64,000 nucleotides of DNA from an uncultured Planctomycetia bacterium (lineage in GTDB: Bacteria; Omnitrophota; Gorgyraeia; 2-02-FULL-51-18): assembly GCA_964606485.1 (NCBI GenBank), contig CAZSGP010000005.1:139649-203648 (forward strand), in the 5' to 3' direction. The translations under genes and the position numbers were made by a program. Below are positions 3,089 through 64,000 of the stretch, piece after piece. Position 1 is the first letter of the stretch, and the number at the start of each line of letters is the position of its first letter. The notes below the pieces were generated by a model, which made no database searches, was not told the origin of the DNA, and saw only the letters and a program-made list of their open reading frames with translations.

Positions 3089-3129
3089 AGGTATGGGGCA
3101 GACTCCGTCCATCTAAAATGATTTCCAAA

Positions 3130-26379: not shown

Positions 26380-26381
26380 AC

Positions 26382-42673: not shown

Positions 42674-45600
42674 TTAGGCCGCTACCTGTGTGGTGTGAAG
42701 CGCGAGAATACTTAAGATGAGCCGGGTATTAAAGACCTTTTCAGGTTCGAGTAACCTAAACCGGTTACCCGAAAAGTGAACGTCCACTAGCTTCTGGAGC
42801 AGTTCTGGAAGCGATTTTGGATCTAAATTTTTAGACAGCGCAATCACGGTCAAAAGATAAAATGCTGAGGAGGACCCATCCACCTCACCGCGCTCGACTT
42901 CGGCGTAAGGCGCCGCACTTGAAAATTGAAGCGCCTTGGCGCGATCCGGAAAATACAACGTTCCCACATTTAATTTTTCGTTTTCTAGTGAATTTAGATC
43001 GGCACTAGGCTTAAACGACAGTTTCACTCCGCTCTGGGATAATTTCTGCAAACGATTTTGAATGGATTCGGCTTGATCACTCGACGCTTCACCGTACAGC
43101 ACGAGTTCGAGCAAGCGACCTTTGACGTGATCAAACTCAAGCGACGAATTGAGAATACTGGTTAAGCTTTCCAAAGCCTTTTGTGTTTTTAAATTTCCAT
43201 TCGCATCCAAGAAAAGTTCCATCGGGACGGGGATTGTTCCCGTTTGACCCGGAGCGACTTTCGCGGAAATAGAATCAGCGACCGCTTTCACGAATGCTTT
43301 TGATTCCTCTATACTTAAATCTTCCAATTGAGCTTCAATAGAATTCTTCGCCTGCGAAGAAAGGCGCTGAGCCTCTGCTAAATCCGCCACTCCGCTTTCA
43401 AGAACCGGATAATTTTCGAGTTTAAAATTAGAATTTATTTCTGAAAGCGGCGCCGTGCGAATCTCAACCGCTTCGGCAGACTTAAGCGTCACGAGCGTTA
43501 CAAAAGCTCCTGTTAAAAGAGGAAAGAGTTTGGGGAATGCTCCGGCCTTGTGAGAGGCGGCAATGCGCGCGCCTGAAATTTTAAGCGGCATCACACTCAG
43601 CTCGGCATGATTGGATAACAAGTTTAACTGAAATTTAGTTTGGCCCCCTTCTTCCCGTAGAAATTTTTCTAGCCTTTTTTCGTAACCTTTTTTTGTGGGC
43701 TCGGTAATTTTGAGCTCTAGTTTTGTACCGGGATTCCTTTGGCTTGTGATGGTAATCGTGTGCACGATCCCGCTTTGAACCAGTCCACGAAGCTCGCTCA
43801 ACGTTTGGTCGAGGGTTAGATTGCGTTTTTCGGAAAGACGGGCGGCATTTGGGGTGTCTATAAGATTTCGATATTCATTACCAACTTTTTGCCCCTGATT
43901 GATCGTTCCATTGGTCGATGCGTTATCCCTAATCTGCCAAACTCCATTGATGAAGGATAAATGCACATGCTCTCCAGAAACACGAGGGTTATCATCCGTC
44001 ACAATATCGTTGTCAAAACCACGGCCAATCTTATAGACCGCCTGCTTAAACCCATCAAGATTATAAAATTTCTGATCTTTAGTTCTCCATAAAAATAATC
44101 TATATCCGTAAATTTGGTAGATGAAAAATTCGTTGGCCGCCGCCAGCGTGAAAGCCGGACGAGACGTCGAAGCAACAGGAACCGTTTGCGCTGGAGGGGC
44201 GGCAATCCGCATCGTTGACTCAGGTACAGGCCCAAGCCATTGTAGCGTTGTCTCCTTAGAAGCATCTTGCGCTAAAAAATTAAGGCTACAGTTGCCGTTT
44301 CCATTGTTGTGCACACTCACCTGGAATCCGTATCGAAATGGTTTTCCGAGTTCAAACGCTAAAGATGGAGCCGTCGGCCTAAAAGCGCCTTTATCATAAT
44401 CTTGAATATAAGCGTGTATGCCGGCACTGTCTTGTTTATACCAAATTTTATAAACAGCCGATCCAACCCGCACCCAAACGTCTCCCATAAATGGCGCATT
44501 CTGAATAGATAGAGGCTTGACACTGCGCGCCGGACTCTTCAACTCGCGGATCCTGCCAAAGTATTCTTTAAGCATTTGCCGAGTTTTGATGTCCTCCATG
44601 TCCACCAACTCTTCTAATTTTTCTTTAGCCTGAATAACCCTAATTTCATCTGGAGTCATCGCGACCCCAATAAACGATTTTTTTGTTTCAAAAAAATGAA
44701 CTGCGTTTAATACATCTTGCGCGGAGTATTGAAGTCCAAAAAGACTGGCGCGAATTTCAGCTGGTTTTAAAGGCGGATCGATTAATCGCAGGACACGCGC
44801 GCAAAGATGTGGGTCTGTTTCATCAAGACCCTGCGTTTTGAAAACAGTTAGAATCGTGGCCATGGCAGGCGCATTGCGCATAACATTGGTGACACCTCTT
44901 AAACCTGCCGATCTAATAAGCTCTTCCCGTATTTTTTCAAATTTATTCGCGGGATCCAAAATTTCCTGTTGGGTTTTTGGTCTATGCGTTAAAAGTGTTG
45001 AGGCAATCACTTTGAGTCGCCTATCCAGCTCTGCTGGTGCCAAATCAGCCAACCGCGATCCTTTAACCTTGTCGCGGGTAAAGCCCGTTTTACTTTGATT
45101 ATCTTTTTTGAATTCGATCATTTCTTCATATGTCTTAAGACCGGGCTTAAGGATAATTTTGTCTCGTCGTTCATTCGGAATCACAAAAATATCCCCATCG
45201 AGAATATGCTGTGAAAGTCCAGGAACTGTGAGCAACTCAATCGGATTTGCGACAACAGACTGATCAATGGCAAAACGAATGTAATAGTCCTTATTGGTTT
45301 TTCTTAAATCCTTCACCAATTCGACATATGCGAGTGGGGTTCGCGAAACACTGTAAAGCTTTCCTTCAAAAAATTGGAGCAAACCCATCTCCAAATCTCT
45401 TTGGACTTCCTCTGAGCTGATTAAAAATCCAGGAGCTCCTTCAATCTCAAAGCGCCTTAGGTCACCGGCCCATTTTTTAAATGCTTCTATTTCAATTTTT
45501 ATTTGTTTGGGTTTCGTTGCGGATTGAACGTGAAGCGCATAATCCTCTGGACTCATACCCGAAAAACGGAAATCCGCGTTGGAGCTCCCTACTACAAACC

Positions 45601-48600
45601 CTCTTAAGATGTCTTTGGCCGCTTGTACATAATTAACGCTAAGATCTGCATCGGGTATTTTAACGGGCTTGCCTTGATGGTAACGCACCCTATTGTCGAT
45701 AAAAAAATCGGAGTTAGCTTTTCTTAATTGTCTGAGATAGGTTTCATAGTCATTCGCAGATTTTCCGATGAGGAACAATGATCCATCGGAATCAATATCC
45801 AAAATTCCTCTTTCTAAGTCTCTAAAGGCCTCGGTGTAACTGGGTTTTACACTCCCTTTATAATCCACAATCTTTTCCACGAAGCCGTAGCGAACCGAAG
45901 AGCTGCTCCAATTTCCGCCCAAAGAATAATAATGTAAAAAGCAAGCGGCCGCCGACTCTCGTTGCTCGTTTTGCAAAAGCGAAGCTTTTAGCTTCAAGCT
46001 CATTCCCCTGGGACCGCTGGAATAATACTCTAACTCTGCATTCGTACCGACGACACGCAAACGCGCCTGAGGATGTAAGAGGTAACACCGGCCTTTTGCA
46101 AAGTACCTGAATACGGGCCACCTAAAAATATTTTTTTCTTTCGGGTTTGTTATGCTTGAGTCATGCAACTCATAAAATATTTTTTCGGTGTTGTAATCTG
46201 CTTCCGCTGAAAGCCGCTCTTGTGCGCCTGGTTTGAACGGCTCTCCAATAATGGCGCATTCTGCCGCATTTCTTAGTGCGATAAAAGCCCTGTGTGCCTT
46301 GCGGTTGGACGCTCTCTCGCGCACTCCCCGATTGGGCTCAGTAAAAGATTCAGGGTCCTGATAAACATCCCAATGAAAACCGTTGCTAAAAAAAACTTTT
46401 CTTTTGATCTTGCCTTTTGACACACACTCAAATTCCAATGCGATAGGATTGGAGGGCGAGCCATCCCCCACATAAGCTTTGCCGGACAGGACATTAAGCA
46501 CGAATTTGGTCGGAAAATTTCCCGCCTTTCCTCTGGGTGCGACGAGCAAATCACCCTTTTTATCTGCCGTCAGCCTGAAATTGTCTCGGATGGCTTTTTC
46601 ATTATTAAGCTCAATAACTAGGTCGCCGAGCGCTTTGCCATTTAAAATTTTGGTGTGGTCCGCCGGCTCCTCGTCGGTGTCAATGGAGTCTGACACACTA
46701 AGCAATTCTTCCCGCATTGTAAAAGCGCTTTCCATGCCAGGTAAAGGGCGCCATCCCTCAAACGCAACCTGAGAATAAGTCCACTTAGTTTGCTCAATCT
46801 CCAAAATATCGAAGCTATCTCCATTAATACTCAGCGTTCCATTTTTTTCGTTAAACAAGTAATCCGCTTGTATCTGCTGATTATCGGAAACGAGTGCTCC
46901 TAGATCGGTTTGATTCGCCTGTACAAAATTCAATAAAAGCCCATTGTCGTGAGGTTTCACACTGATAGGACAAATAAGCAACCTTTCGATTTTGCGTCCG
47001 CTTTTTTTTCCTTCCAATGTTATCCAAATAAGATTTTTCCCATCTGACGCTCTCACCCAGGATGAGTAAATCGTTGAGCTGGGAAGAGAAGTTAGGCGAG
47101 CCCCCTGTGGGGGAGTTGTTTTAACCTTACGTGCGTCGCTCGCTTTTTGAAGCACGCTGAGCTCGAACATCAGCTTAAAAAATACCGGTCGCACCAAATC
47201 GGCATTTTGACCCTTATACTTTTTTTTCTCCATACGTACTTTATCTCTGCGAATGAGAAGGGTTACGAGTTCTTTTTGATTTTTGCAATCCAGAACGCGC
47301 ATCAACTCCGACAAATCACTCGCAGAAACTCCATCTAAGCCCTTCGCTAATTCGTCTATTTTCCAGGGCGTGAAAGCTTCAATTTCACTTTTTTCTTTTT
47401 TCGTAAAGATACCGGGGTTTACCATCCAACGCGCTTTTTTATCGTGCTGGTCCTCTTCAAACCGCTTGATTTCGTCGGTCGAATAAAAAGATGAGTTTTT
47501 GTGCGCCGCGGCTAGAACAATGAGCCCTGTCTTCAAAACCGAGAGGGCATGCTCTTGGTTAATGAGTCCGCCCAAAACATATTGCTCAATAATTTTTTCA
47601 TAATATTCTGTAGCGTTGCTGTCCTTTAAGCGTCGCTGCATGGTTTCTTCGTGTGCTTTGACAGTTTCCAGCACACCGGGAATTTTTAGAAAATTTTTTA
47701 GGTCTGCCTCGGTTACACGGTAGCCCCCTAGTAAATATTGGTTCAGCAGTTCGATAGCGTTGGGCAAATAATCTGTTTTGCGCACTCCCTTTAAATCACT
47801 CATCAAATGTTCGGGGTTATAGTCCGGATGCATGAAGAGAAGAAGGGTGTGAAGAAGCAGCCACCGCCTGCCCGATGCTGTTTTTCCATCCCAGGCCATA
47901 GCATCCACGGCAATCTTGGCATACTTGGCTCTCCGATCGGGCTCTAATTCAACGTAACTCTGGTAAGCATTGGATTGCAGCGTGAGAATACTGATCTTAT
48001 CTTTGGCTTGATTTCCCACGAGCGCCATTTCAACGCTAGAAGCCGCATAAAACGCGTTAGGATTTAACGTAAAACCTTTCTTATCTTTAAGCGCTTGGAA
48101 AATCTTTCGCGTTAATTCGAGCGCAAAACCATCGTCTATCCGGTTGTCTACTCGAATGAGCTCTTCGTTGTCAAAATTGAACACTATTTGCCTGGGCCAA
48201 TTCTGGTTGTCATCAGAATCGTCCGCGGATCTACCCTTCACGTAAAGACGACGCGAGGCGGCCGTCACTAAAAGAGTGATATAGTCTTCCAAGTCGCTGC
48301 CCTTCATAAGAATTAAGCGCGCGCCTTGAGTATGCGCCAAAATATCCTTCACCGCGTTTTCGCGTTCTTTGGGATTGTCTCTTAAAGAAGAAATGTAAGA
48401 TTCGATGGATGAGCGATTTGATTCGGAAAAACTGGCTAAACGAGCGCCTTTTACAGCTTTAAGACGCTCTGTTTTCTCGGACGATGCTAATGCAAGGAGT
48501 AAAAATGATTTTTCGAGGGAGTTCTGCTGAATATCACGAAAGATCTCCGAGGATTCAAGCATTTGATGGGCATGATTAATCTCATCTAGCCCCGAAAGCA

Positions 48601-51600
48601 ATCTAAATGAAAGAAAAACTAATTGGCGTTGAAAAGTCGATTTGTAATCAATATTGTTATAGGCGGGACTAGCATTCACATCCATCCAGGCTTCGTCAAA
48701 AACATTCCAAGTAAAGCAGTCCATTTTAACAATGGCTTCTATCGCTGGGGCAGCATCTCCCGCTTTTAAATGATCAATTAAATATGCATGGTTACCGTAA
48801 CCTTGAATAAAATAATCCAGCCATTGGGCCAATTCCTTGACGCTGCCCATTTCAACGGCGGCCCATGTGTATATCGCCAAGGTTTTAGGATCTGTTTTAG
48901 AAATTTTCTCAAGCTCCTGCTTAATTTTTTTTACGCCTTCAAAATTACCACCGGATTTTGCCAAGGCCAATACATAAGTCGCTTGTACCGTCGGTTCCAA
49001 AGAACGGAATTCTTCATCCATCGTTAACTGCGCAAAGTACTTTTTTACTTTTTCTAAACTTGAGTCGCTTTGCACTGCGGCCAAAGTGAGTATCGATCGC
49101 TCAAGGACTTCGTTAGGAAAAAATTGATCATTTGAAATTACACGATAAATGTCTTCGACCCGCTTTTCAGCCTCTTCAATAGCTGTTTGTCTATTGGGAT
49201 CCAAATCTGTCCATTGAACAGAACTAGAAGAGTTATTGTCGGGCCTTAGTCTCCGTTGCTGCGGATAAGGAAAAAAATCTGGAATTTCGCCACGTTTAAT
49301 TTTTCTTTGGAGATTAATCCAATACCCGTAGCGAATGATATCGGGGTGTTCTTTGACAAAACTCGCACGGTACGCCATCGGAATATAATCAAGAAACCAC
49401 TTCGGGAAAAAATCCAACGAAACACCTTGGTCGACATCGCTAACAGCCGAAAAATATTCCCCCAAAGACATGCCCTCAGAGTCTGAGACGCGCGTAATTT
49501 TTGGGAGAAAATGCATGTCCTCCAAATTTTCAAGATCATCAAAATCGTACAAAACGACACGTCCAAAATGAGTCACTCCAAAATTTTTTGGAAGCGCGTC
49601 CATTACGAAAATTCCGGCAGCAGCTAAATCCTTCAAGCAATAACCCCATTCTAGGACAGCTGCTGTTTTCTTTTCTTCGGGAACATCGGGATTATCCAGA
49701 AAAACATCCAGCGGCACCAATTTACGCTGTGCAAAAACCTCCTTGAAGATAACCTTTCCGTCCTTAAGGATTATGTTGGATGGCTCCCGCTCACCTTGGG
49801 GTGTCGCGTGCTCAATCAACTCCTTTAAAAGAGCTGGGTCAAAGTCAGATTCTTTAAATTCTAGAACTTGAAGCGTTATCGGATTTAATGCGCGACCAAC
49901 ACGGTCCATCCCCTGCACTTTTCGGTACATGCGCTTTATAAATTCTCGGATATTAACGCCCCCCTCCTCTCGCTGAAGCAGGGATTTCTTTGATGTGCTC
50001 TCTCGCGCATTTTTGAAAACATACCCAAAAGTAGGAAGCACAAAAGTATCAAGAGCCATCCCCTTCACGCCGGTCGCCCACTGAAATTTCTCACCTGGAT
50101 TAGTCTCTAAATGATTCCGCAAATTATGGACTAACTCCAATTTAGCCGGATGAGCGAAACCAACCGCAGAATAAATGGATGAGGGGGATTTATTTGGAAT
50201 AATCGAATGGAGGAAATCCAATAATTCATGATAATAATTCATTCCGGTAACATGAAAATCAATTCGCGTGTAGCCAAAGATATTGCTAACGTCCGCCTCA
50301 TTCGTCAGAACCGCATCAACTGCAATCCCCTTTTCAGTCTTTACCAGCGCGATAACGAAAGGGACTATTTTTTTGTCTGTCCGGATGCGTCCTACTAAGT
50401 AAGCACCTTTGTTGCGAAAAAAAATCTTTTTCCATATTTCAATCGAACGAATGGTCCTAAAAACCTTTTCCTCTTGATAGCGGCGAATATCTTTCTCCAA
50501 CATTTCGGCGGATAATTTCGAGTCTCGCTCCAAGTTTTCATACGGCGCTTCCACAAATCCTGCATCTTTTAGAATTCTTGCGATCGTCTCCGGACTCAAG
50601 TCTTTGTAGACTCGATAATAACGGTGAATAACCCCTTCGCTGGCGTACTCAATAGGCGTATTGACGTCCTTAAAAATTCTCCGCTCTATGGAGTTAAAGA
50701 AAATGATAGCCAAATCGGAATCCGGTCGTTCGCCTAACCATAAACTATAAATTTTTTGTAACGCTTCCCACGATTTTTTGTCTCTTAAACGATCACCCAT
50801 TAGGGGGGCAATTTCCGCAATCACTTTTGTCAACGCATCACGGTATAAATTGAGTCGCTCTTTGGCATTTTTTTGGCCCTCTTCCCAGAGTGATAGCTCA
50901 AATACTCTCTGAGCTCTTGCTGTAATTTCGGCATATCTGGATTGGTACTCATCGAAAGCCTTTAAAATCAGACGAACGATATGATCCGGTGAGACATTCG
51001 AGCGCTGATCGGAGACATAAATTGGCTTTGAAATACTTGATGATTCATCTCCGTTACCTTGAAATTCAGGCCGTTCCGCCAACCGCGCTCCACTCTTGGC
51101 TCTCCAATACCCCATCACTACCGTGGTCATGCCGTCTTTTTTGGGATAATCATTTTGGAAGCCGTCGACGGATTCGAAACCCGCCTCGTTTAAAATTCTT
51201 AGATAATTTTCTTTTTCGATCAGATACTGGTCCGAATAAAGATGGGACATGAAATACGCGGTCTCGAGTGTAGAACCTAAGTTACGCGCCGCAATTTGAG
51301 GGTTAATAGAAAGAAGATCTATTGTCAGAAGTCCGAACCGAGATGAAAGACTAGCCCACGATTTAAAGTGCTCGTACAAGTTTTGCTCCAACACGCCATT
51401 TGGAATAATTCGACCGCGATGCGTGTAAATGGCTCTTGAATCGGTGCGACGCCTTGCCGCGGCCTTGCGGTCTTTGGGTATCACAAACGGACGGTTATGG
51501 TCTAAAAAAGAGCGGACGTGTAAAAGATCCTGGGCTTTTGCGTCGAAAGGAGCTAGAAGCTCGTTCAAATTTTTTTCATAGAGAGCAGGGTCGTTGATAT

Positions 51601-54600
51601 TGCCAAATAACACCTGATGGGAAATATCCGCTTGGACGAGCCGCTCGTGCGTAATTTGGCGCGCTTCTTCGTTGTAATCTGCTCCAAACACGCGAACTGG
51701 ATGAGCCTCTAAATGAAGCCCGCGCGCGGTTTCGTTTTTAATCACGCCGTAAATAAATTCGAGGAGCATGCCGTTTCCACAACCCATGTCGGCGATGCCT
51801 TTGGGCTGTTCGTTGAGTTCTGCTTCTGAAAGAGCTGCGTCGCGGCGTCCGAAAATTTTAATCACGTTTTCCCGAAGATCCCGGAAATAAGTTTCATGGG
51901 AATTGCCACTGCCTTCTACGTTCATGGGCCGGTTGACGAGAAGCTCTTCTTTGTCCGGACCGCGGCGGTCAAAGTATTTTTCAATAAAATTTCGCTCTGC
52001 AAAAAATAAATAATACAAATTTGATAATTCAAAAGACGGCAAGTAGGAAACAGGAACTCCATAAGACCAGGCCTTGGACAGCGCGTAGAGCCCGCGCGGA
52101 GTAAACGAAACGGTGTCGTCGTTTATTTCAACCCAATGAAGCCGCGACAAAAAGTTAAACGCAATTTCAAGGCGCCGAGTTTGCCCGCCACAATCTTTTA
52201 TTTTAAAAGGACCTCTTAAATCAATAAGACCCCGGTCGGCCTTTTTGCGGATTTCAATCATGAGAGGTCCGGTGAGCATTCCGATCACAAGCGGACCGAT
52301 TAATGGAAGAGATGTTGATTTTAAAATGGCGCTGTCACACAAAGAAGAAAATTCCGCAGTTTTAAGCAAGTCCGCGGCCGGCGGATCGCGGGGATTTGAA
52401 AATAAAAATTCATCCATTTTTTTGAGTGTGGGAATAAAATCCACAAATTTTTCAAAAGATTCCGCAACTCCAAACACTTCGCGGCCCTGTTCAGTGACTT
52501 CGATTGTCATGGCCCCTGTCGCGCGCTTTCCAATGCGCCTGACCCACCCTTGGGCTTCCAAACCTCGGATCGCCCCGTGCAGATAACCCATATTGACGCG
52601 AACTTTACCCTGGCGGAGTGTGCTTGCAATGTCGCGCACCGTTACCGTCTTGCGGGAATCGTAGGTTTCATTTAGAAGCTCTAGCACCTTTTCACGGCGA
52701 AAAAATTCTAAAGTGGAGGCAATGCCAATGCCATCCGTGTGCCTAAAAATTTGCGGCAGAACTTCTTTTTGAAGTTCTTTATTTTTTCCAATTTCATTGA
52801 GAATTTTTTTGTTGGAGGATTTGACGGGTTCTGCGAGACGGGCGCCGGAGCTGTAGTGCAAACCCAAGATTTGAATCCCTGGGTCTCGAACGATCACCGG
52901 TAATCCGTTGTTTAATAAATCAAGTTTCGTATGATTCCCATAAAGCTTCCGATTGGCTGCATCAAAAACAACCACCTTCTCTTCGTCGGCTAAGTGCTCA
53001 AAAAAATCTGCGAAGTGCTTGTCTCCCTTGCCCAACGTACCGGCGGATTCTTCCGGATTAAATCGAGAACTTCCGTCAACGCTCACAATAAATCGCCGTC
53101 CGTCAATTTTGACCATAAATACTTTGACTGAAGCGTTTGTCGAACCCAAAGAAACGGAGGACTCATAAGCTTCTAAAAATTTAATGAGCCGCTTACGAAA
53201 CCACTCGCTCACAATTGTCCGGTGAGCGTCTTGCTGAAGAATAGGGTCTTTGGAGACATAGTTGCGCAACACCGCCAAGGGATCTTCACGGACTTCACAG
53301 AGCCGGTCAAATTGGCGCAAGTATTCCGCAGCCGTAATTTTTGCTTTGAATACATGACTTAAAAGCACTGAAGCAGCCTGGTAACTGCCAAAATGTCTGG
53401 GACTTTTATGAAAAAGAACGTTCGCCCATAGAAACGTGTTTAAATAAGCTTCCGCTGAACCATTTGCCGGGATCAGCGTGTTTCCAGACCCAGGGACGTC
53501 ACGATCCACAACCAGTCCTTGTCTCTGAATGATGCCCTCTAGCCATACCGGCCCCACCTGCAAACCGCCGTTGACCGAGATATCCGATTCGGTGTATTCC
53601 GCAGCGCCCGTGCCGCGATCGGAGTCCTGACATTGTAAATCAGTGGCGGCAAACATGGTGACCTGCTCGGGAGTGCTCCAGCCCGTAGCGACTATCAGAC
53701 GACCAGGACCTTCTTTGTTCACGTCTTCGGCAATTCTGCGCAGATCATTGTGCATGTGCTGTGTGGTCGCTTGCACATTTCCAAAATGCACAACTTGAAC
53801 GCCGGCTTTAACCAATTTGCGAATATTTTCTTCGGTAAAAGCCCGGAGCCTTCCAGCTTTTTCATCCACCAATCTTCCGTAATAGCCCAGCACCAGTTGG
53901 TCCGGGTTTAAATTTTTAATCTCCGGATCAAGTGCCATGAGCTTTGGGTCCTGTGAAACGCGGCGCTTGGCTTCTTTTTTAATCGCTAAAACTTGGTCAA
54001 TCGTTGGCGCATCCGGATCCGCCGTGTCTCCAAAAAGTTCAAGGCAGATGTTTCTAAAAAACTCGTTTGAAATTTGGTGATTGTCGCCATTCGTAACGGA
54101 GATCAGCCGAATGTTTCGATCAATCGGCGCCACTTCCTCCCGATGCACAGAGCTCACGGCATTTGTTCCATCAGCTGTGCGCAAACCGCCGCTGGTGTAA
54201 TCAATATCCGACAACCGGTCCATGTACCCCAGCCACTCATATGGCACATCCCCCTTCATGACGGTTGAACGCTCTGCATTGGAATAACGTCCCCGGTTGC
54301 GGTACGTGTGAGTGGTCATCCAAACCAAGGCATTTTTAAGAACACTTCCTTCATGCTCATACAAAACTCTCTTATAGAGCGGCAACAGTCCGCACTGCCC
54401 GTCATTGGCAAATAAAATCGCGTCTTTGAAAAGATTTTTAGGGGATTCTTTCTTACGTCTATTTTCTAAATAAGCCGTTAATTGCAGGGATGCTTTCGCA
54501 AAAAATTCGGTGAAACCCTGCCAGCTTGCAGAACCATACTCAGGGCCATAGCGGTAAAGGAGCTTGGTGTAAAATTCATGCTCATCTTTAATAAAATAAG

Positions 54601-57130: not shown

Positions 57131-57142
57131 AACCCTTAATTG

Positions 57143-60100
57143 TTACGCCGCTCTCTCCGCCGCGCGAGCAACATTGGCAGAGCGAATTTGTTCGGAAATG
57201 GCTTTCACGAGTCTGGCCATCACTGTGCGGCCACCCACGTTAACGGCTGTTGTTCCGAAGCGATTTCCAGATCCCAAAGACAGACCCGCCGACACGACAT
57301 CGTCGAGTGACAACTGTGAAACCGAGCCTTCCACGCCATAAACGAGCCAGCGTAAATCTCCATCTTTCAAATTTGGAGGAAGCTCTTCGTATCCAATGTT
57401 ATCTGCGTTACGAAACGCGATCACCATTTGCTTCAGTGCTGAAGGATTCAAATAAGGATTTGATCCCGCTTTGCGGCGCAGGGCTTTTAGGAGCGAATGA
57501 GCTAACGTTTGTCCATCCGTCCTATCGAAACAGAGCGTGTGAACCTGCGTTAAACGAAGGTGTTCGATTTCCCGATCTATTTTCTCTGCTAAGGCAGTGC
57601 TTGGCGTGACGAGAAGAATGGGCTGCCGGCTTGTCCTGATCTTTCGAAGGGCATGTTGGATGCTCGCCGGGTCGCTCTTTAAATCGGCCGGTAAAATCAT
57701 GGGGAGAATTTCCGAGGGCGCTTGAAGATTCACCACGCCTTGCGCAGAAAGCCCGGAGCGCACTGACTGTAAATTGGCTTGATGAACGGTCTCACTCGAA
57801 GCAAACGTGTTGAGATCTGCGCGAAGCGCTGCGGCATTGGAAATATTAAATTCATTTGCAGAAAATTGAATCTCATTCGCCTGCGCAGAAGGAACTTGAG
57901 AAATTGAAAATAGGATTAATTTCCCGGCTAGTAAAATCGGTACGATGGCTTTTTGGAGAGACCCTAGCGAAAGCGCAAGCCGGGAGCCCATCTCTTCTTT
58001 GGTCGCGGCATCGTCTGTTCCTTGTTTTTTAGAGGCCTGCGCGGCTTGGCGGCGAGTAGCACCCTTTAGCCTTGCTTCCACTCGTAGCGCTTTGGACGAA
58101 CGCTCCATTTTTCCGGAATCCGAAAGACGGGAGCCTGACGTTGCTTGAATTTCAAGAAGCGCTTCTTTAAAATTGGCCAGATGGTCCATTCCCTTGAGCG
58201 TGCGCCCGGCTTCAAATTCTTTTCTGGCTTCGCGACGTTCCTCGTTTAATTTTTCCAAAAGTGCCTGAATTTTTTTGTCACCCTGAACAATTTCAAATTG
58301 AGGGTTGAGACCCTTATCGATCCGGCTCTGCAAGGTCTTGTCTCGAATCAGCCTGGGCTCATTTTCCTTAACAAAAACACCGCTAGTTACTTCACCAAAA
58401 AGAATAATCCCTTGTTTGTATCCTCCGAGTGTTTCACGACGCTTGGCCACGATTGCTTCAAATTCTTTTTCATCAATGGCCAAAATATCCAACACCCGGA
58501 CAATTCCCGTTAAATCTTCCGGCGCTTTTGCCAAATCAGAAAATGCTCGTTCGGCCTCGTCAGAATAAACAAGCCACAACTTTTGCTCATGCTCTAAAAG
58601 TGAGGCGATTTGCTTGAGATTCGAAATTTCAAAACGCCATTCTTCAACGGTACCTTTAGAGTTCACCATCGGCATTTGAGCTAAATGAACTTTGTCTTTG
58701 AGTGTAGCCGCAACGCGTCTAGCAATCTCTTCGGTCGGCACCGACGCGGGCGTTAACAGATGGATGGGTGCGTAGACATGATCCCGGGTTTGTCCAAAAT
58801 AAACGAGTGTTTCGAGCGGTTTCGGGTGTTCAAAACCATTTTTCTCGCGCTCGATATAAACGGTAATCTCCGCCTCCCGACCGTCCGGATGCGAGGCTAC
58901 TACTTTCTTAGTCACAATCTTCGAGTCTTGCGCGAGGCGTGCGCCGGATGGACGTGCCAGCGAAGCGTCGACATCTTCTATGAGACCCCCAGTTTTAAAA
59001 TAGGTGATAAGGCCACGCGGGGGAAATCCTACAAGAACTAAACTCATCAAAGCATCGGTGATTTTTTTAATATCTTGCCACGACTTGGTCGAAAAAGTAG
59101 CTGACTCTCGGTGGCCCGGTATTACCTGCACCGTAACCGTTGTTAAAATATTATTTTTATCTTGGGCGTTCTTTATGTCGCGTGAGACCCAAAACTCGAA
59201 ATCACCGTACGGGGATCCGGCGACACCCCTACTCTCTGTTTCCTGATCGGCGAGGCGGGCGGCACTGAATGTGCGATACATTTGAATATACTCCTCCGCT
59301 CCGCCACCCTCAATCCAGTCGGGGTTGTAACGGGCAACTTGCAACAAATATTCAAAATATTGATCCGTTTGCTTGACGTTCAAAAAGTCAGCAACACGAT
59401 CTAATATTTGCTGTGCAGAAATCTGTCTTTGTTGGTCGGCTTCTTTGCCAGTATTTGCTTCAAAACCATCCACCAACTCAAGCGGCGTTCCGTTGGCTTC
59501 TTTAAAATCTTGAAGCCCGCCTCGGCTTGTCGCAATGACAGCATCTAGCAGTAAAGCCGCTTCCTGATTGCTGATTCCACCGGGCTCATCAATGGACGGC
59601 ATGAAGAAAAGATCCGAGCCCGCACAAATTTGCTTCGCTAAAACCGGATCAAATTTATTTTTAAATACAAAGCGGCCCTGATATTTAGGGTGCGCCTCTA
59701 AAAATGTCTTTAAAAATTGTTCTTGTTCTTTTCCGAGAGTATCTCCCGCTGTCCCTAACACCGCCATCTGAACGTTCATGCCGGAATCATTGCGGGTATC
59801 CAAAATTGCTTCAAGCAATGTTCGCCCATCACTTAAAACCGTCGAAAGAATATTCAATCCTTTTTGCTTAACAATTCGCGTCACGACACCCACAACTGTG
59901 GCATTGGCGTCTTGAGCTAAGCCCAGCTCCTGCTGAAGTGCTAATTTATTTTTTTGTTTCCAATCAGCGAGCGCTCTGCCGTCCATTTGGGCAAGCGGCT
60001 TGGACGGCTTTACAAAACGGGGTCCTGCCAAAGCTTTTAAATTTTCCGGTCGATGAGACTCAGCTTTGATTCGGTTATAAACAGGAGAAATTTTATAACT

Positions 60101-63100
60101 CACGGAACTCAACACGCCGTCAAGTCCGTAACCTCTATTCTTGGTCATTCCTTCGCGCGCATGACCTTTGCTGACAAATAAAATTTTATCCGCCCAAATC
60201 ATTCCGCCTTTTATAAAATTATGACGGCCCTCTATGGAACCACCTTCAAAAGTGGAATAATGCTGTAACCCTTTATTTTCTCTGGCATCTCTTAACCAGT
60301 ATGGGAGATTTGTTAATCGGAAAACGTCGATACTTGCTCCGGATTGCCCCCCAATAACCCCTCTTTCGATTAAGGTGCTACGGAGAGAATCAGAAGCAGC
60401 CAAATAACCTGGGAACATACCCTGATATTCTAAGTTATGAATCACCTGATAACTTTTTGGAGTTTCTCGGAGTGGCCATGAATCGGACGCGTAATTTTCT
60501 TTCATGAAAATAGGTCCGAGTGCCGTCTGCCAATCGTTAAACTGGAATTTTTCGAAGGGAATGGCAAGCTGTCTTGAAATTTCAATCGCCGCAAGAGGAA
60601 GCAAAATGCCTTCGATGTAGCCGCCGACCGAATCGGGGTTTGGCTCTGCATAAAGCGTGTTGAAAAAATTTCCGGATGGATCATAAATTTGAATCACCGG
60701 TACCCCGTCCTGCTCGACCGTGAATACTTTTAGCGGAATTGACCCGGACCCAACGGGAATTTCAAGATCCATTAAATGCTGCCCACCATACGCTTCCAAA
60801 TATTTTTCAAGCGTTCCAATTTTGGGATCACCGACAATATCCGCGCTAAAAAGTGGAGTCACTACCATTGCAGCGACGCCTTTTTGCGCTATAGCCCAAG
60901 GCTGTTCATTCATAAATACACCTTGTCCTCCGCCGCCGGGACCGATGCGTTTCAAACGATTCCCGGATTTGTCTTTGACCGGCATTTCCATGGCCACCGA
61001 CAAAACTCCGAAGAGCCCATTTTCACGCGCTTGCTTGACTCGGTTTACCAATTGCTGGGCTAACTCGGTATTCACAGAGGATGCTTTCGCTAAGCGCGCA
61101 GCGGAAATAAAAGCCTTTTCGTCCTCAATTTTTAACGTAAACAAAGTCTCCCCGCTCACACTCGCAAACTCTAAGAAATTTTGGGGGAAAGATTTATCGG
61201 ATGGGACATTCAAACGTTCAATCACAACGTCGTCCACGTTTCTGGCGGCGATCAAAGCAACCACCTCTTCGGCAGATAAGTTTTCGTATAGGCCTTCGGC
61301 ATTGTTTACTCCGGCGAGGCGGGCGGCGTTATTATTTGTACGCGGAGTGCCAGCCATTTCCATCTTATCCAAGAACCTTATTTCTACATAATTAAGATGC
61401 TCGTCGCGCTTACCTTCTTGAATTTTCACTTTCCACATTTCATTCGCTCCGATTCCAAATTCACGAGCCGCTCCCAGAAGCCTCGGAGAATATTCATCTA
61501 TTTTTTTTCCTACCCTTATAGCAACATCGTGTTGTTGTCTTATGCCGCGCACCGTAATAACCACAATTAAGGTCTGACCCGGTTGCAACTCTTGGACGTA
61601 GGGATCAATTTTTGCGGGCAATTGATCAGGTGACGCTTTGATTTCCGCGAGACGCGCTCCCCGAACCGATCTTCGTTCACGCTGAGCCTTGCGATTAGCA
61701 ATTCTACGCTCATCATTGGCAAGATTCGTTAGCGCACGGATTTCTATACCCGCTTGGGCTTCGGATAACGCTATTTCCGCAAATGACGGTTTTAAGTCGT
61801 TAATTGCTATAAATAAACTGGCTACCTTTTGACCCGATGCGTCTAACACCGCTTTCACATAACGGCGTCTAAATTTATACAGATCATTCACCACATTTTT
61901 TAAAGAAAGTTTTTTGTAATGGGTTTTCGCTAACAATAAATAGTGGGTGCGGGTTTCTTTAAGCGTTTGCTCGCTAGTGGGCTTGACTGGTTTTTCTTCC
62001 GCAAGGCGTGCGCCTTGTGAGCTCAGTATTGTGGTAATCAAATCCGCAAGCTCTCCAACCGAGCGCGCTCTTAAGAATGGCTCAGATTGAACTTCGTCCG
62101 GAATATTAAATTCATCTTCTAATTTCTGAATCAAATTGATGTCGTCGAGAGAATCAGCACCCAGATCTTCATTGAGTAAACTGTTTCGGGTAATCTTGTG
62201 GGCAGGCACACCGAGCTGCTCGGAAACAATTTTTTTGACTCTATCCAGCACGGAAAGATTTTTTTGCGTGGCTTTGGTGGCGAGGCGGGCGCCTTCACCT
62301 TCCAACCAGAACCCTCGTTTAAGTTCTCCTAGATGATAAAGAGTGGCCCTTCTGAGCGTAGGGCCCACACGACTCGTCGCTTCCAAAATAAACGGCACGG
62401 CGCGGTCTAGCTCTTCTCGTAAGATTTGGATTTGTTTCGGAGAAATGGGCTGTGCTCTTCTCAGATTAATTTCAATCGGACCTAAGGCACGGGCTCTCAG
62501 AGAGAAAAAGGCGGAGCGAAAATATTGAGCGTGGTCGTCCTTGGCACCGTTAACCAAGTGATCGAGGTCTTTTAAAACCTTTTGAACGGCCAAGAGCTGG
62601 GTGCGGCCTTGAGTGAGTTCACGAGCTATTTGCTCAAGGTGCTCTTCGTTAATTCCATCTAATTTTTTTGAAAAAACATCATCCGGATCAGACTCCCAGT
62701 GGCCACCCCATATTCCTGTTCTAGGATCAGGTCGATAGGGCATCTCATCTGCTGCCAGGCGGGCGCCATTGGACGATTCTTTTTGACGCGCTTTCCGAAT
62801 CTCCTCCGAGCGTTTCTCGGCGCGAAGATTTTCAAAAACAATCGCCACAAACGCGCTGAAACCCCCGATTCCTATTAACGCCAGTGAAACGATATCCGAA
62901 ATACTGGTTGAAAGACGTGCACCCAGAGTGCCATCTTCTCCGCGACCGTGATACCAATCTCGAACAATCTGAAGCTGTGCGGCCCTCGAATTAATATACT
63001 CTTTCCCTTCTTTCGCCATTTCATCCAAATTTGGTATGTGGATATAAAGCATGAGGCGTCGATCGACAAGCTTGGCTAATTCGGAAAGCTCGCGTTTGCA

Positions 63101-64000
63101 TATCTTCTGGGTTAGTCCGTACGGGGCCTCGGATTGATTGGAAAGATCAGTAGTCTCAAACCCATTCTGGATTTGTGCCAAAGTATCGGTTTTTATTTTG
63201 TCGTCCGAACCCTTAGGGTCCACCAGCGCATACGCGGCCATCATGTAGGCTTTTCTTAAGGGAACAACATTTTTAAGAATATCACTTGGATGCCCAGAAA
63301 CTCTTAACTGAGCGGCGTATCGGTTTGCTGTTTGTGTAAAATTTTCTTTCTCGCCTCTTATCTGGTTTTCCGCCAACCGCGCGCCCTTTGTAGCCGGAGT
63401 CGAAATCATTCCTGTCTCCGCGACAAATTTTTCCCCTTGAGGCTCAAACCGGAATGCCGGAGTTCTAAGAATCGTTAAATCTCTCAAATAAAATTCAAGA
63501 ATCACGCCGCGACCCGAAATGACGTGGATATACTGCGTGCCCGCGTCAACAAACCCTACGGCGAACGCCGGGAATTGAGTGGTTTCACCCTGGGTTAACG
63601 CCACTTCCTTGCCGCTCGCTAGCGTCTCGGGAGAGTCCGTCGTATACATTACTTCACTGAAGTTTGAATTGGTTGTCACGACCACAGCAGGATCATTGTG
63701 AGAATGGATTTTTGTCTTGCCGCCTTCTTCCTTGAAATAATGGGCAAATACATCAATCACAAAACCCGGTCTCCCGTCCTTGGAGGGCAGTTCAATAGAA
63801 AAGGGGTTGTTTCGCTCGTAATCCTTATCGCCTGGTTTATAAATTAAAGTTGGGAGGATCTCCGCGAGATCTTTTTGAATCTGGGGATCTCGAAGCAATT
63901 TGCCCAATTTCTCCGAAATCCTAATACTAAAACGCGCTTTGGCCTTTGCCTCTTGAGGAACCCAGTGAGCCAAGGACTGTTCATTCGTATCTCCATAGTC
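57143..64000 (-). CDS. Giant multi-enzyme protein of at least 2285 aa, with the N-terminus beyond the window end. Contains a TM helix, an ACP module, a GlgA-like GT-B domain and a second hydrophobic segment. At least 11 GARLA motifs.
   Basis: The ORF track gives 57143..63973 from a TTG, but the frame stays open upstream (DYGDTNEQSLAHW...) to the window edge. It ends 12 nt before the start of the 4818-aa gene. Confidence 0.75.
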   Translation of the reverse strand, partial: DYGDTNEQSLAHWVPQEAKAKARFSIRISEKLGKLLRDPQIQKDLAEILPTLIYKPGDKDYERNNPFSIELPSKDGRPGFVIDVFAHYFKEEGGKTKIHSHNDPAVVVTTNSNFSEVMYTTDSPETLASGKEVALTQGETTQFPAFAVGFVDAGTQYIHVISGRGVILEFYLRDLTILRTPAFRFEPQGEKFVAETGMISTPATKGARLAENQIRGEKENFTQTANRYAAQLRVSGHPSDILKNVVPLRKAYMMAAYALVDPKGSDDKIKTDTLAQIQNGFETTDLSNQSEAPYGLTQKICKRELSELAKLVDRRLMLYIHIPNLDEMAKEGKEYINSRAAQLQIVRDWYHGRGEDGTLGARLSTSISDIVSLALIGIGGFSAFVAIVFENLRAEKRSEEIRKARQKESSNGARLAADEMPYRPDPRTGIWGGHWESDPDDVFSKKLDGINEEHLEQIARELTQGRTQLLAVQKVLKDLDHLVNGAKDDHAQYFRSAFFSLRARALGPIEINLRRAQPISPKQIQILREELDRAVPFILEATSRVGPTLRRATLYHLGELKRGFWLEGEGARLATKATQKNLSVLDRVKKIVSEQLGVPAHKITRNSLLNEDLGADSLDDINLIQKLEDEFNIPDEVQSEPFLRARSVGELADLITTILSSQGARLAEEKPVKPTSEQTLKETRTHYLLLAKTHYKKLSLKNVVNDLYKFRRRYVKAVLDASGQKVASLFIAINDLKPSFAEIALSEAQAGIEIRALTNLANDERRIANRKAQRERRSVRGARLAEIKASPDQLPAKIDPYVQELQPGQTLIVVITVRGIRQQHDVAIRVGKKIDEYSPRLLGAAREFGIGANEMWKVKIQEGKRDEHLNYVEIRFLDKMEMAGTPRTNNNAARLAGVNNAEGLYENLSAEEVVALIAARNVDDVVIERLNVPSDKSFPQNFLEFASVSGETLFTLKIEDEKAFISAARLAKASSVNTELAQQLVNRVKQARENGLFGVLSVAMEMPVKDKSGNRLKRIGPGGGGQGVFMNEQPWAIAQKGVAAMVVTPLFSADIVGDPKIGTLEKYLEAYGGQHLMDLEIPVGSGSIPLKVFTVEQDGVPVIQIYDPSGNFFNTLYAEPNPDSVGGYIEGILLPLAAIEISRQLAIPFEKFQFNDWQTALGPIFMKENYASDSWPLRETPKSYQVIHNLEYQGMFPGYLAASDSLRSTLIERGVIGGQSGASIDVFRLTNLPYWLRDARENKGLQHYSTFEGGSIEGRHNFIKGGMIWADKILFVSKGHAREGMTKNRGYGLDGVLSSVSYKISPVYNRIKAESHRPENLKALAGPRFVKPSKPLAQMDGRALADWKQKNKLALQQELGLAQDANATVVGVVTRIVKQKGLNILSTVLSDGRTLLEAILDTRNDSGMNVQMAVLGTAGDTLGKEQEQFLKTFLEAHPKYQGRFVFKNKFDPVLAKQICAGSDLFFMPSIDEPGGISNQEAALLLDAVIATSRGGLQDFKEANGTPLELVDGFEANTGKEADQQRQISAQQILDRVADFLNVKQTDQYFEYLLQVARYNPDWIEGGGAEEYIQMYRTFSAARLADQETESRGVAGSPYGDFEFWVSRDIKNAQDKNNILTTVTVQVIPGHRESATFSTKSWQDIKKITDALMSLVLVGFPPRGLITYFKTGGLIEDVDASLARPSGARLAQDSKIVTKKVVASHPDGREAEITVYIEREKNGFEHPKPLETLVYFGQTRDHVYAPIHLLTPASVPTEEIARRVAATLKDKVHLAQMPMVNSKGTVEEWRFEISNLKQIASLLEHEQKLWLVYSDEAERAFSDLAKAPEDLTGIVRVLDILAIDEKEFEAIVAKRRETLGGYKQGIILFGEVTSGVFVKENEPRLIRDKTLQSRIDKGLNPQFEIVQGDKKIQALLEKLNEERREARKEFEAGRTLKGMDHLANFKEALLEIQATSGSRLSDSGKMERSSKALRVEARLKGATRRQAAQASKKQGTDDAATKEEMGSRLALSLGSLQKAIVPILLAGKLILFSISQVPSAQANEIQFSANEFNISNAAALRADLNTFASSETVHQANLQSVRSGLSAQGVVNLQAPSEILPMILPADLKSDPASIQHALRKIRTSRQPILLVTPSTALAEKIDREIEHLRLTQVHTLCFDRTDGQTLAHSLLKALRRKAGSNPYLNPSALKQMVIAFRNADNIGYEELPPNLKDGDLRWLVYGVEGSVSQLSLDDVVSAGLSLGSGNRFGTTAVNVGGRTVMARLVKAISEQIRSANVARAAERAA
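59400..60650 (-). other. Second GlgA-like GT-B glycosyltransferase domain (in gene C)
   Basis: ...FEKFQFNDWQTALGP (compare GlgA HAHDWHAGL), VGVVTRIVKQKGLNIL (GRL..QKG..L motif) and FFMPSIDEPGGISNQEAALLLDAVIATSRGGLQD (compare PSRFEPCGLTQLYAL..G..P.V..TGGL.DTV). Confidence 0.55.
62090..62290 (-). other. Acyl/peptidyl carrier protein-like module (phosphopantetheine attachment motif) in gene C
   Basis: VKKIVSEQLGVPAHKITRNSLLNEDLGADSLDDINLIQKLEDEFNIPDEV. The LGADSLD motif is near-identical to E. coli ACP (LGADSLDTVELVMALEEEF). The Ser codon is at 62150-62152. Confidence 0.6.
62840..62905 (-). other. Predicted transmembrane helix in gene C
   Basis: IVSLALIGIGGFSAFVAIVF, about 20 hydrophobic residues, immediately after a GARLSTS motif and followed by the charged ENLRAEKRSEEIRKARQKE. 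Confidence 0.5.

Follow-up and report, generated by a model that had tools for sequence, protein, structure and literature searches.

Introduction

Omnitrophota are set apart by giant open reading frames (ORFs), a trait still without explanation. In two preprints, the multi-enzyme ORFs of this phylum are described with starch-synthase GT5, GT1, methyltransferase, and sugar-metabolism domains, and with a signal peptide or transmembrane (TM) helices in 94% of the giants (West-Roberts et al., 2023, bioRxiv 10.1101/2023.11.21.568195; Nielsen and Lui, 2026, bioRxiv 10.64898/2026.06.07.730766). Cleavage of such proteins was proposed in the first preprint, which states the cleavage points as unknown (West-Roberts et al., 2023). 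The nearest classes are the "multi-enzyme metabolic cluster" (Nielsen and Lui, 2026), the Archaeovorins (West-Roberts et al., 2023), and the giant ORFs of Seymour et al. (2023, PMC10066038). Here we analyze a stretch of 64,000 nt, called the window below and always meaning the whole of it, from an uncultured bacterium labeled Planctomycetia and placed by GTDB in Omnitrophota (GCA_964606485.1, contig CAZSGP010000005.1, positions 139,649 to 203,648 of the forward strand). It carries two tandem giant genes, A and B, and part of a third, C. The products of A and B are punctuated by a pentapeptide, mostly GARLA, at the boundaries of unrelated enzymes. We put it at about an even chance that they are exported polyproteins that would be processed at these junctions, with a conserved N-terminal putative hydrolase domain (the head) as candidate protease.

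An earlier note on the window, made from its letters alone, had described A and B as a mosaic of normally stand-alone enzymes whose architecture was not of a known kind. The latter claim is only partly right, since the two preprints cited above already describe giant multi-enzyme ORFs in Omnitrophota. The note had missed the GARLA-type junction, the TIKI-like head, the conserved tail with its -[AS]A terminus, and the third gene at the left end.

Junction Pentapeptide in Genes A and B

Gene B (42674..57130, minus strand) starts with ATG and is complete, encoding 4818 aa that comprise a signal peptide, a head, eight to nine cargo modules, and a tail ending in TQVAA before the stop codon. Gene A, which is located immediately upstream on the same strand (57143..64000), is partial. 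It runs for 2285 codons plus stop from the window edge without an in-frame stop and ends in AERAA, with a tail and C-terminus of the family described below. Its N-terminus lies beyond the window, as presumably does its own head, and its total length is at least 2285 aa. The TAA of A and the ATG of B are separated by a 12-nt spacer, CAATTAAGGGTT (57131..57142, minus strand; read directly from the sequence), in which only 2 nt part an SD-like AAGGG from the ATG, a distance that is short for a Shine-Dalgarno site; from this arrangement, A and B may plausibly be coupled in translation. The reading of two minus-strand ORFs 12 nt apart, with the upstream one running off the window, was thus correct in the earlier note. 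Because A ends with the family tail and B starts with a signal peptide and a head, these are two separate tandem genes and not one interrupted ORF.

Both products are punctuated by the pattern [G/A][A/S]R[L/I][A/S/T], mostly GARLA, at 12 sites in A and nine in B, the latter including GARLI and GARIA. With the strict pattern, 12 sites are observed in A (0.19 expected, Poisson 5e-18) and seven in B (0.31 expected, 4e-08), the expectation being computed from composition; none of 2000 shuffles gave more than three. Just four further matches were found in all six frames of the window outside the A and B sites. The codons of the motif are synonymously variable (GGC, GGA, GGT, and GGG for Gly, all four Ala codons, CGN for Arg, and TTR as well as CTN for Leu), which indicates that the constraint acts on the peptide. 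For the same reason, we rejected the motif as a sense-codon recoding or start/stop signal.

All six Pfam-defined units of A and B lie between consecutive motifs, and in four of the six the domain ends 1–8 aa before the next motif. The acyl carrier protein (ACP) begins 8 aa past the preceding motif and ends 7 aa ahead of the following one, and the distance to the next motif is 1 aa for the GlgA-like unit, 8 aa for the methyltransferase, and 7 aa for the FHA domain. Some neighboring motifs are only 5–45 residues apart (e.g., aa 588–627 of protein P0062, B aa 2895–2936, and A aa 1956–2005), where processing would free short spacer peptides rather than folded modules.

From the N-terminus of B (all coordinates in this and the next paragraph are on the minus strand), aa 1–29 (57044..57130) resemble a Sec-type signal peptide, with a KYKK...R n-region, a hydrophobic core, and SVA followed by AP at the predicted cleavage site. 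This A-x-A/A-P site is conserved in homologs, A29, A30, and P31 being invariant in five of them, in agreement with the signal peptide of the earlier note. The conserved head (aa 30–532, 55535..57043), for which a TIKI/Ere/ChaN-like hydrolase fold is predicted, is closed by GARLS at B533 (55520..55534). The following module (aa 538–1428, 52847..55519) is GT-B glycosyltransferase-like with a GT5-like N-half, as judged from a weak profile match (aa 779–1003, 1.3e-07) and from a motif-to-motif alignment with another giant, L011. After GARLA at B1429 (52832..52846) comes a module of aa 1434–2013 (51092..52831) with an AprA-like N domain, a winged helix, and an MT2-like SAM methyltransferase (Pfam AprA_N, WH_AprA, and Methyltransf_36; PF23526, PF23589, and PF23525; aa 1460–2005, 6e-80). 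GARLA at B2014 (51077..51091) then leads into a full-length AceK with a 263-aa helical extension that has no Pfam match (aa 2019–2894, 48449..51076). Its regulatory and kinase domains (aa 2048–2631, NF002804 9e-124) align to residues 9–569 of the 578 of Escherichia coli AceK, and both are over their gathering thresholds (PF20423, 223 bits; PF06315, 178 bits). The NCBIfam equivalog score of 414 is under the cut-off of 488, which marks this module as a divergent member of AceK, and its nearest relatives are all stand-alone proteins of 570–610 aa with at most 39% identity. GARLA at B2895 (48434..48448) is followed, after a 36-aa spacer, by the degenerate, junction-like GARLI at B2936 (48311..48325). 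Two modules without a recognizable family in the Pfam scan come next, aa 2941–3342 (47105..48310) and aa 3348–4023 (45062..47089), separated by GARLT at B3343 (47090..47104). GSRLA at B4024 (45047..45061) opens a module of aa 4029–4428 (43847..45046) with a Pfam FHA domain at its C-terminal end (aa 4366–4421, 1e-09). The last junctions, AARLS at B4429 (43832..43846) and the junction-like GARIA at B4520 (43559..43573), enclose 86 residues (aa 4434–4519, 43574..43831) that have no family in whole-protein Pfam and NCBIfam scans of B. The tail (aa 4525–4818, 42677..43558) consists of a hydrophobic segment and a divergent domain of ~280 aa ending in -VAA.

In A, the first motif of the visible part is GARLA A206 (63371..63385). 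GARLS A360 (62909..62923) and GARLA A412 (62753..62767) enclose a mini-module (aa 365–411, 62768..62908) made of a single TM helix (aa 367–388) and a basic stretch. Between GARLA A570 (62279..62293) and GARLA A663 (62000..62014) lies a complete 88-aa ACP (aa 575–662, 62015..62278) with the DSL serine present in an LGADSLD motif (PP-binding/ACP match at aa 583–655; Pfam 1e-07, NCBIfam ACP 2e-15). GARLA A781 (61646..61660), AARLA A892 (61313..61327), and AARLA A967 (61088..61102) follow, and the last of these opens a GlgA-like GT5+GT1 glycosyltransferase (aa 972–1579, 59264..61087), whose match at aa 1024–1578 (TIGR02095, 1.9e-47) is well below the cut-off of that model. Beyond AARLA A1580 (59249..59263), GARLA A1686 (58931..58945), GSRLS A1956 (58121..58135), and GSRLA A2005 (57974..57988), the chain ends with a tail (aa 2010–2285, 57146..57973) that has a TM-like helix (aa 2015–2033) ahead of a tail domain ending in -RAA. 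A GTG-initiated ORF of 223 aa lies antisense within gene A (60720–61391, plus strand) and is most likely a chance ORF.

In total, A and B contain nine distinct significant Pfam families, none of which dominates, and no repeat expansion. The AceK, SAM methyltransferase, ACP, and FHA assignments of the earlier note are all significant in these profile searches, its AceK is indeed complete, and the stand-alone nature of such enzymes is plain from the relatives of the AceK module. As to the two GT-B glycosyltransferases that it named, the unit in A is well founded and the call in B, limited to the N-half, is weaker than was implied. The long regions of no recognizable similarity are also real; ten dark modules scanned singly against Pfam gave no match, and two other giants of the family (L019 and L020) gave almost none. 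TM-like segments, likewise noted earlier, are the two in A and a weaker one near B 4530. The modules are equivalents of complete stand-alone proteins.

A Large Family of Head, Cargo, and Tail

The N-terminal 530 aa of B have four word-indexed homologs, one of them labeled Candidatus Omnitrophica. A genome scan with the head alignment found 308 relatives, of which 80 loci were fetched and studied. These loci are all from metagenome-assembled genomes (MAGs), mostly labeled Omnitrophota or Omnitrophica and often with many paralogs per MAG; a few relatives are auto-labeled Planctomycetia, Eisenbacteria, or Ratteibacteria. The attribution to Omnitrophota, which had been offered as speculation from gene content, agrees with these labels. 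At most loci with enough downstream contig, the head opens an ORF that reaches the end of the fetched flank, at least 3,850 aa. A HMMER search with the head profile against 1.84 billion representative proteins matched 9,077 protein clusters, 5,003 of them at 1e-30 or better. The head is N-terminal in all of the best 150 of the 9,077 matches, and the member lengths seen range from 347 to 7,482 aa.

The junction is as widespread as the head. In most of 53 giants, no 4-mers are more frequent than GARL and ARLA or their variants GARM/ARMA, GAKL, and AARL. Among 55 giants with ORFs of at least 1500 aa, the motif occurs 357 times against 15 expected (24-fold), and ORFs of 150–500 aa contain 14 against 13 expected. 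In a logo of 356 sites, information is confined to the five motif positions, 2.4–3.6 bits each, with a weak Ser/Ala preference at -1 and Glu at +1. An independent set of 147 proteins has 912 motifs against 40 expected, and the top 5-mers outside the head are GARLA (369), GARMA (123), AARLA (106), and GARLS (92). The complete members have a median of six motifs (range 0–31) and a median module length of 258 aa. Members that seemed motif-less at first use the variants GTRL[A/S], GSRV, or GARA. Within a MAG the variant is uniform (GARM at 3/3 loci, xARM at 4/4, GARL at 4/4, AARL at 2/2, and GARA at 2/2), and the preferred variant is thus a property of the genome and not of the single gene. The family-wide junction is [G/A]-[A/S/T]-[R/K]-[L/M/V/A]-[A/S/T], with GARLA as the form in the genome of the window.

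Head and cargo are split in GCA_964491555.1. A 765-aa head-only gene (P0001) contains GARLA twice and a TM helix, and its short C-terminal region does not close with AA. Directly downstream of this gene lies a headless ORF of >1132 aa (locus L001; CAZBHX010000018.1, 1071–6788). This ORF has no signal peptide, has seven strict GARLA sites, and contains a complete glucose-6-phosphate isomerase (PGI) module between motifs. As a reading of gene layout, the split is compatible with a head that acts in trans. At another locus (L066, 894–11345), which uses the Lys variant GAKLA, the giant ORF is broken by a single in-frame stop at 6579–6581 and the same frame continues with GAKLA junctions; a sequencing error, a pseudogene, or read-through is possible.

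Gene C at the left end of the window (2..3112, minus strand) also belongs here. It runs off the left edge, starts with a family head (VILIQDAHAN...FVEGG...GVED...ITGGYHTQNL), and has AARLA at aa 502 (nt 1595–1609) and an HTH_31 domain at aa 789–831. The window therefore holds at least three members among housekeeping genes, and tandem pairs of family genes occur also at two fetched loci (L059 and L074). In summary, A, B, and C belong to a very large paralogous head-cargo-tail family in MAGs mostly labeled Omnitrophota. When complete, a member consists of a Sec-type signal peptide, the head of ~500 aa, cargo modules that vary from member to member, and a divergent tail of ~300 aa with -[A/S]-Ala at its end.

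Head Domain

TIKI, TraB, Ere, and ChaN are members of one superfamily, in which the TIKI family has a catalytic set of two His and two Glu (PMC6254334). RRSP, an effector of the MARTX toxins (multifunctional autoprocessing RTX), is a TIKI-fold endopeptidase with catalytic residues E3900, H3902, E3930, and H4030 (PMC6254334). The heads of 51 family members, compared at ~30% pairwise identity, share invariant I-Q-D71-A-H73, N75, E101, G152, E154, K191, R424-D425, and G460-G-x-H463, among others (B numbering; 51/51). The spacing from H73 to E101 is 28 residues, the same as from H3902 to E3930 of RRSP, an equivalence that is drawn from motif order and spacing. Like the TIKI/TraB/PrgY/Ere/ChaN superfamily, the head is predicted to have an α/β core with a helical insert, and it has an Asp/Glu-x-His...Glu...His signature; it differs in that the first acidic residue is Asp and not Glu, that the helical insertion is ~280 aa, and that it always occurs together with a giant cargo chain, either fused to it or adjacent.

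No sequence-level match to the head was found in Pfam, NCBIfam, or PDB profiles. When PDB sequences were searched with the head profile, the only matches were of coiled coils with the helical insert, and we judged them spurious. A Foldseek search placed EreC and BcR135 in the top ten, without significance. Judging from the invariant residues, the head is very probably an active hydrolase of the TIKI/TraB/Ere/ChaN superfamily; its activity may be that of a peptidase, as in TIKI and RRSP, or that of an esterase, as in Ere.

Tail and C-terminus

Of the giants of at least 1500 aa whose stop codon lies in the fetched DNA, 19/22 end in -[A/S/Q]-Ala, mostly -Ala-Ala, against a background of 15/604 among ORFs of 150–500 aa. 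In the independent set, 95/147 end in [AS]A, and the rest are presumably truncated. By iterative local HMMs, 59–70 of the 97 tails, with a length of ~300 aa, group together as a single divergent family. The tail of B belongs to it, with P0013 as nearest relative (5e-22), and that of A is linked weakly via P0029 and P0017. A word-indexed homolog search with the tail of B found nothing, and when the two tails of A and B were compared by BLASTP, no significant match resulted; the iterative HMMs alone joined the tails. An AF2 model of the tail had low confidence (pLDDT 57), with nothing better than E 0.017 in Foldseek against PDB.

A TM helix in the tail was found in 17/91 complete members and is not general. 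TM helices as regular signal-anchor modules after junctions were also considered, and the enrichment was only ~2-fold, with no general rule. The idea that the -AA terminus mimics the P2–P1 residues of a cut junction was weakened by the finding that the motif mostly starts with G-A, whereas GA ends only 2/147 C-termini.

Exchange of Modules at Junctions

The GT-B module of B (aa 532–1433) and L011 aa 1655–2557 match from motif to motif (912 aa, 46% identity), with the module standing elsewhere in the chain of L011. Local alignments between giants begin no more than 15 aa from a motif in 37.5% of cases, as compared with 8.9% by chance. The rank of homologous modules changes from giant to giant, with no conserved order, and the LOG, aldose epimerase, and receiver (REC) domains of P0062 and P0105 each lie inside one module. 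Modules are thus exchanged between paralogs at junctions.

Proposed Processing of the Chain and Other Readings

The reading that we favor, an exported polyprotein processed at the junctions, would work as follows. The chain would be made as a precursor with a Sec-type signal peptide and exported in a Sec-dependent manner. The pentapeptides would be sites for a genome-specific protease, with the TIKI-like head, acting in cis or in trans, as the prime candidate, and after export the chain would be cut into single enzymes plus short spacer peptides. The candidate scissile bonds are Ala-Arg and Leu-Ala. A cut between Ala and Arg would resemble double-glycine-type GA/AA/GS sites, and the cysteine protease domain of MARTX toxins cuts after Leu before a small residue, which would fit R-L followed by A. 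The periplasm, the cell surface, and a prey or host cell are candidate sites of action, the last having been proposed for Omnitrophota giants. We favor this reading because the motif is conserved as a peptide without conserved context, because it stands at the boundaries of complete, unrelated enzymes, because its form is constant within, and variable between, genomes, and because it is always tied to a conserved putative hydrolase domain, in cis or from an adjacent gene.

Several points weigh against it. Processing is deduced here from sequence, and the superfamily of the head includes esterases (Ere) and the heme-binding ChaN as well, which leaves room for a head without peptidase activity. 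With the head in the periplasm after cleavage of the signal peptide, all of the cargo would have to leave the cytoplasm before cutting. If its predicted signal peptide is cleaved, B, in which no TM helix precedes aa ~4530, would have its AceK, methyltransferase, and GT modules outside, and AceK, ACP, and NDP-sugar transferases have no obvious periplasmic substrate; surveys of topology published for Omnitrophota giants arrive at the same awkward conclusion on export. The topological puzzle raised by the earlier note, a signal peptide on a chain of ATP-, NDP-sugar-, and CoA-dependent enzymes, is therefore real. The motif is not depleted in ordinary proteins (the 14 against 13 given above), counts that are too small to test avoidance. 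A search for a head residue co-varying with the motif variant found no informative column in the alignment, which favors a separate trans-acting factor or says nothing. Lastly, over 346 motif sites in A, B, and loci L004–L082, the motif codons are skewed toward GGC GCG CGG CTG GCG beyond the own usage of each gene (chi-square p 1e-16 to 1e-57), with GGC at 171 against 98 expected, GCG at 194 against 111, CGG at 176 against 62, CTG at 116 against 64, and AGA at 9 against 60. This bias points to an added nucleotide-level or common-descent component, which junction copying, recombination microhomology, or an mRNA-level role could cause.

The strongest of the other readings, a real possibility to which we give a minor share, is that the giant remains uncleaved, as a single membrane-anchored or periplasmic multi-enzyme scaffold in which the pentapeptide is a linker or a docking element for a chaperone, the translocon, or a partner. 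Published work does take each giant for one membrane-associated polypeptide, the motif resembles a linker in being short and standing at domain ends, and esterase activity is possible for the head. The sequence of flexible linkers, however, is normally not conserved, whereas the motif positions carry 2.4–3.6 bits each and their neighbors almost none, and a variant that is uniform within genomes and different between them implies specific recognition. The modules, moreover, are complete stand-alone enzymes of unrelated functions in no conserved order, and adjacent motifs are set apart by spacers of 5–60 aa.

We consider it unlikely that the junction is foremost a seam at the level of DNA, that is, a 15-nt device or scar of in-frame cassette capture or shuffling (e.g., by microhomology-mediated recombination) with the peptide incidental. 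The codon skew, the break of homology between giants at junctions with modules at different positions, and the genome-specific variants would all suit such a seam. Yet all synonymous codons are used, including TTR and CTN for Leu and AGR and CGN for Arg, and the amino-acid pattern is kept in paralogs whose heads are only ~30% identical, although a pure scar would decay at non-synonymous sites. The flanking DNA shows no conservation outside the 15 nt, and flanking repeats or att-like sites were looked for around the motif and none were found. A seam could coexist with cleavage, and the junction of a processed polyprotein may also serve in, or derive from, in-frame recombination between modules.

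It is doubtful, and in our view quite improbable, that the polyprotein is cut by another enzyme encoded elsewhere, such as a C39-type double-glycine peptidase, a subtilisin, signal peptidase I, or a tail-specific protease, with the head in another role, e.g., as an esterase or in export. C39 substrates are cut at double-glycine-type GG/GA/GS sites, which a cut after [G/A][A/S] would match. C39 and S8 domains have been reported near the N-termini of other Omnitrophota giants, and the uniformity of the variant across a genome without a co-varying head column would fit one trans-acting enzyme per genome. Against such an enzyme, scans of A, B, C, and further genes of the window gave no peptidase domain, whether C39, S8, or of another type, save the housekeeping FtsH and ClpX, and the amphipathic leader that C39 enzymes require is absent, there being no information upstream of position -2. 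That the long ORFs are assembly chimeras or decayed pseudogenes is hardly credible: the exact protein B has no record in the gene-position collection and the exact 53-nt probe of the A/B junction has no match in Joint Genome Institute (JGI) metagenome contigs, but the head-cargo-tail plan with ORFs of at least 3,850 aa recurs in dozens of independent MAGs and 9,077 protein clusters, the active-site residues of head, AceK, and ACP are intact, A and B both close with a family-specific tail and an -AA terminus, and the PurL of the window is matched exactly in an independent assembly.

Beyond A and B, we hold only tentatively the wider view of an Omnitrophota-wide, Sec-targeted polyprotein system cut by a built-in TIKI-family endopeptidase at GARLA-type junctions, by which enzymes and regulators would be released outside the cytoplasm. 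In such a system, AceK, ACP, glycosyltransferases, methyltransferases, PGI, and receiver and HTH proteins would be freed, most plausibly onto or into prey or host cells, and the junctions would double as in-frame recombination points for the shuffling of cargo.

The conserved junction pentapeptide offers candidate cleavage points in the giants, and this makes the polyprotein question directly testable. It also allows a principled in silico splitting of these proteins into modules for structure prediction and annotation, which was stated to be not possible for lack of cleavage information (West-Roberts et al., 2023). Together, the head profile and the -[AS]A terminus mark out a family of ~9,000 clusters, the members of which can be recognized and judged for completeness. 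The locus thus reveals a simple and testable set of rules by which the giant proteins of a very large bacterial family are composed. Should processing be confirmed, bacteria would have a large-scale cellular polyprotein strategy, the first that we know of, and the TIKI fold would gain a new function.

Neighboring Genes

The genes around A, B, and C are ordinary chromosomal ones, including a purine operon and genes for SHMT, ClpX, FtsH, DnaB, BamA, LpxA/C/D/I, and IspH. The PurL protein of the window (38000–40234) has an identical counterpart encoded on a contig of 8.9 kb from an independent public assembly (SRR12487046_33543, Logan assembly of SRR12487046; locus L083), which indicates that the same organism is present in run SRR12487046. 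A divergent two-partner-secretion (TPS) pair at 24631–29417 has no evident link to the giants. It consists of a ShlB/FhaC-type transporter (24631–26379, plus strand) and a TpsA-like 1011-aa protein with a TPS domain and a β-propeller (26382–29417, minus strand). An ORF of 361 aa (20830–21915, minus strand) with a lipoprotein-like N-terminus (...FSFSGC) and no Pfam match overlaps the 3' end of the FtsH-like gene (21815–23449) by ~100 nt.

Comparison with Known Systems

The general kind to which A and B belong, Omnitrophota giant ORFs of stand-alone enzymes, is already known, and no description of the motif, the head, or the tail was found in the searchable literature. A keyword search of both preprints gave no junction motif, no TIKI-like head, and no conserved C-terminus (West-Roberts et al., 2023; Nielsen and Lui, 2026), and a literature search gave no description joining "polyprotein" with Omnitrophota nor, among the top-ranked matches, GARLA with Omnitrophota. 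With the published giants, A and B share the phylum, long ORFs tiled with unrelated stand-alone enzymes, mostly dark sequence, and a signal peptide and/or TM helices. The published catalogs cover proteins of at least 10,000 aa or ORFs of >20 kb, whereas B has 4818 aa, A at least 2285 aa, and the family described here 347–7,482 aa. The Archaeovorins feature HEAT repeats, an N-terminal C39 or S8 domain, a C-terminal TM segment with a SecA-like domain, and GT5, of which A and B share only GT5/GT1; no HEAT, C39, S8, or SecA match was found in A or B at E ≤0.1 in Pfam or NCBIfam, nor a dockerin in Pfam.

Although A has an ACP (aa 575–662), no KS, AT, KR, DH, A, C, or TE domain was found in A or B as expected in polyketide synthases (PKS), non-ribosomal peptide synthetases (NRPS), or fatty acid synthases (FAS), and the AprA-like methyltransferase is in the other gene. 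Multi-core precursors of ribosomally synthesized and post-translationally modified peptides (RiPPs), such as PatE of the cyanobactins, carry repeated cargo units flanked by short recognition sequences that are cut by dedicated proteases. The cargo here differs from that of PatE in being whole enzymes of 100–900 aa and not peptides of 6–10 residues, and no RiPP maturation enzymes were seen.

MARTX toxins are large secreted proteins with unrelated effector modules shuffled between strains, and their built-in protease cuts the linkers between modules. No RTX repeats and no C80 cysteine protease domain were found in A and B, nor a type I secretion system (T1SS) context in the scanned neighbors. 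A and B differ from MARTX toxins further in having a Sec-type N-terminal peptide, a fixed pentapeptide in place of a loose Leu-X site, an N-terminal TIKI-like head as candidate protease, and thousands of paralogs as compared with one toxin per genome.

The polyproteins of picornaviruses, potyviruses, alphaviruses, and nidoviruses have the same layout of one ORF with many complete proteins split by a short conserved recognition sequence. In the viruses a protease of the same chain cuts, and its site preference co-varies with lineage; here cutting by the head is proposed, and the motif variant differs between genomes. The family of A and B is moreover cellular, chromosomal, and multi-copy among housekeeping genes, and the fold of its candidate protease is not a known viral one. 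Even so, the pattern of a motif with its associated putative hydrolase has the look of the signature that a protease and its sites leave in viral polyproteins and in MARTX toxins.

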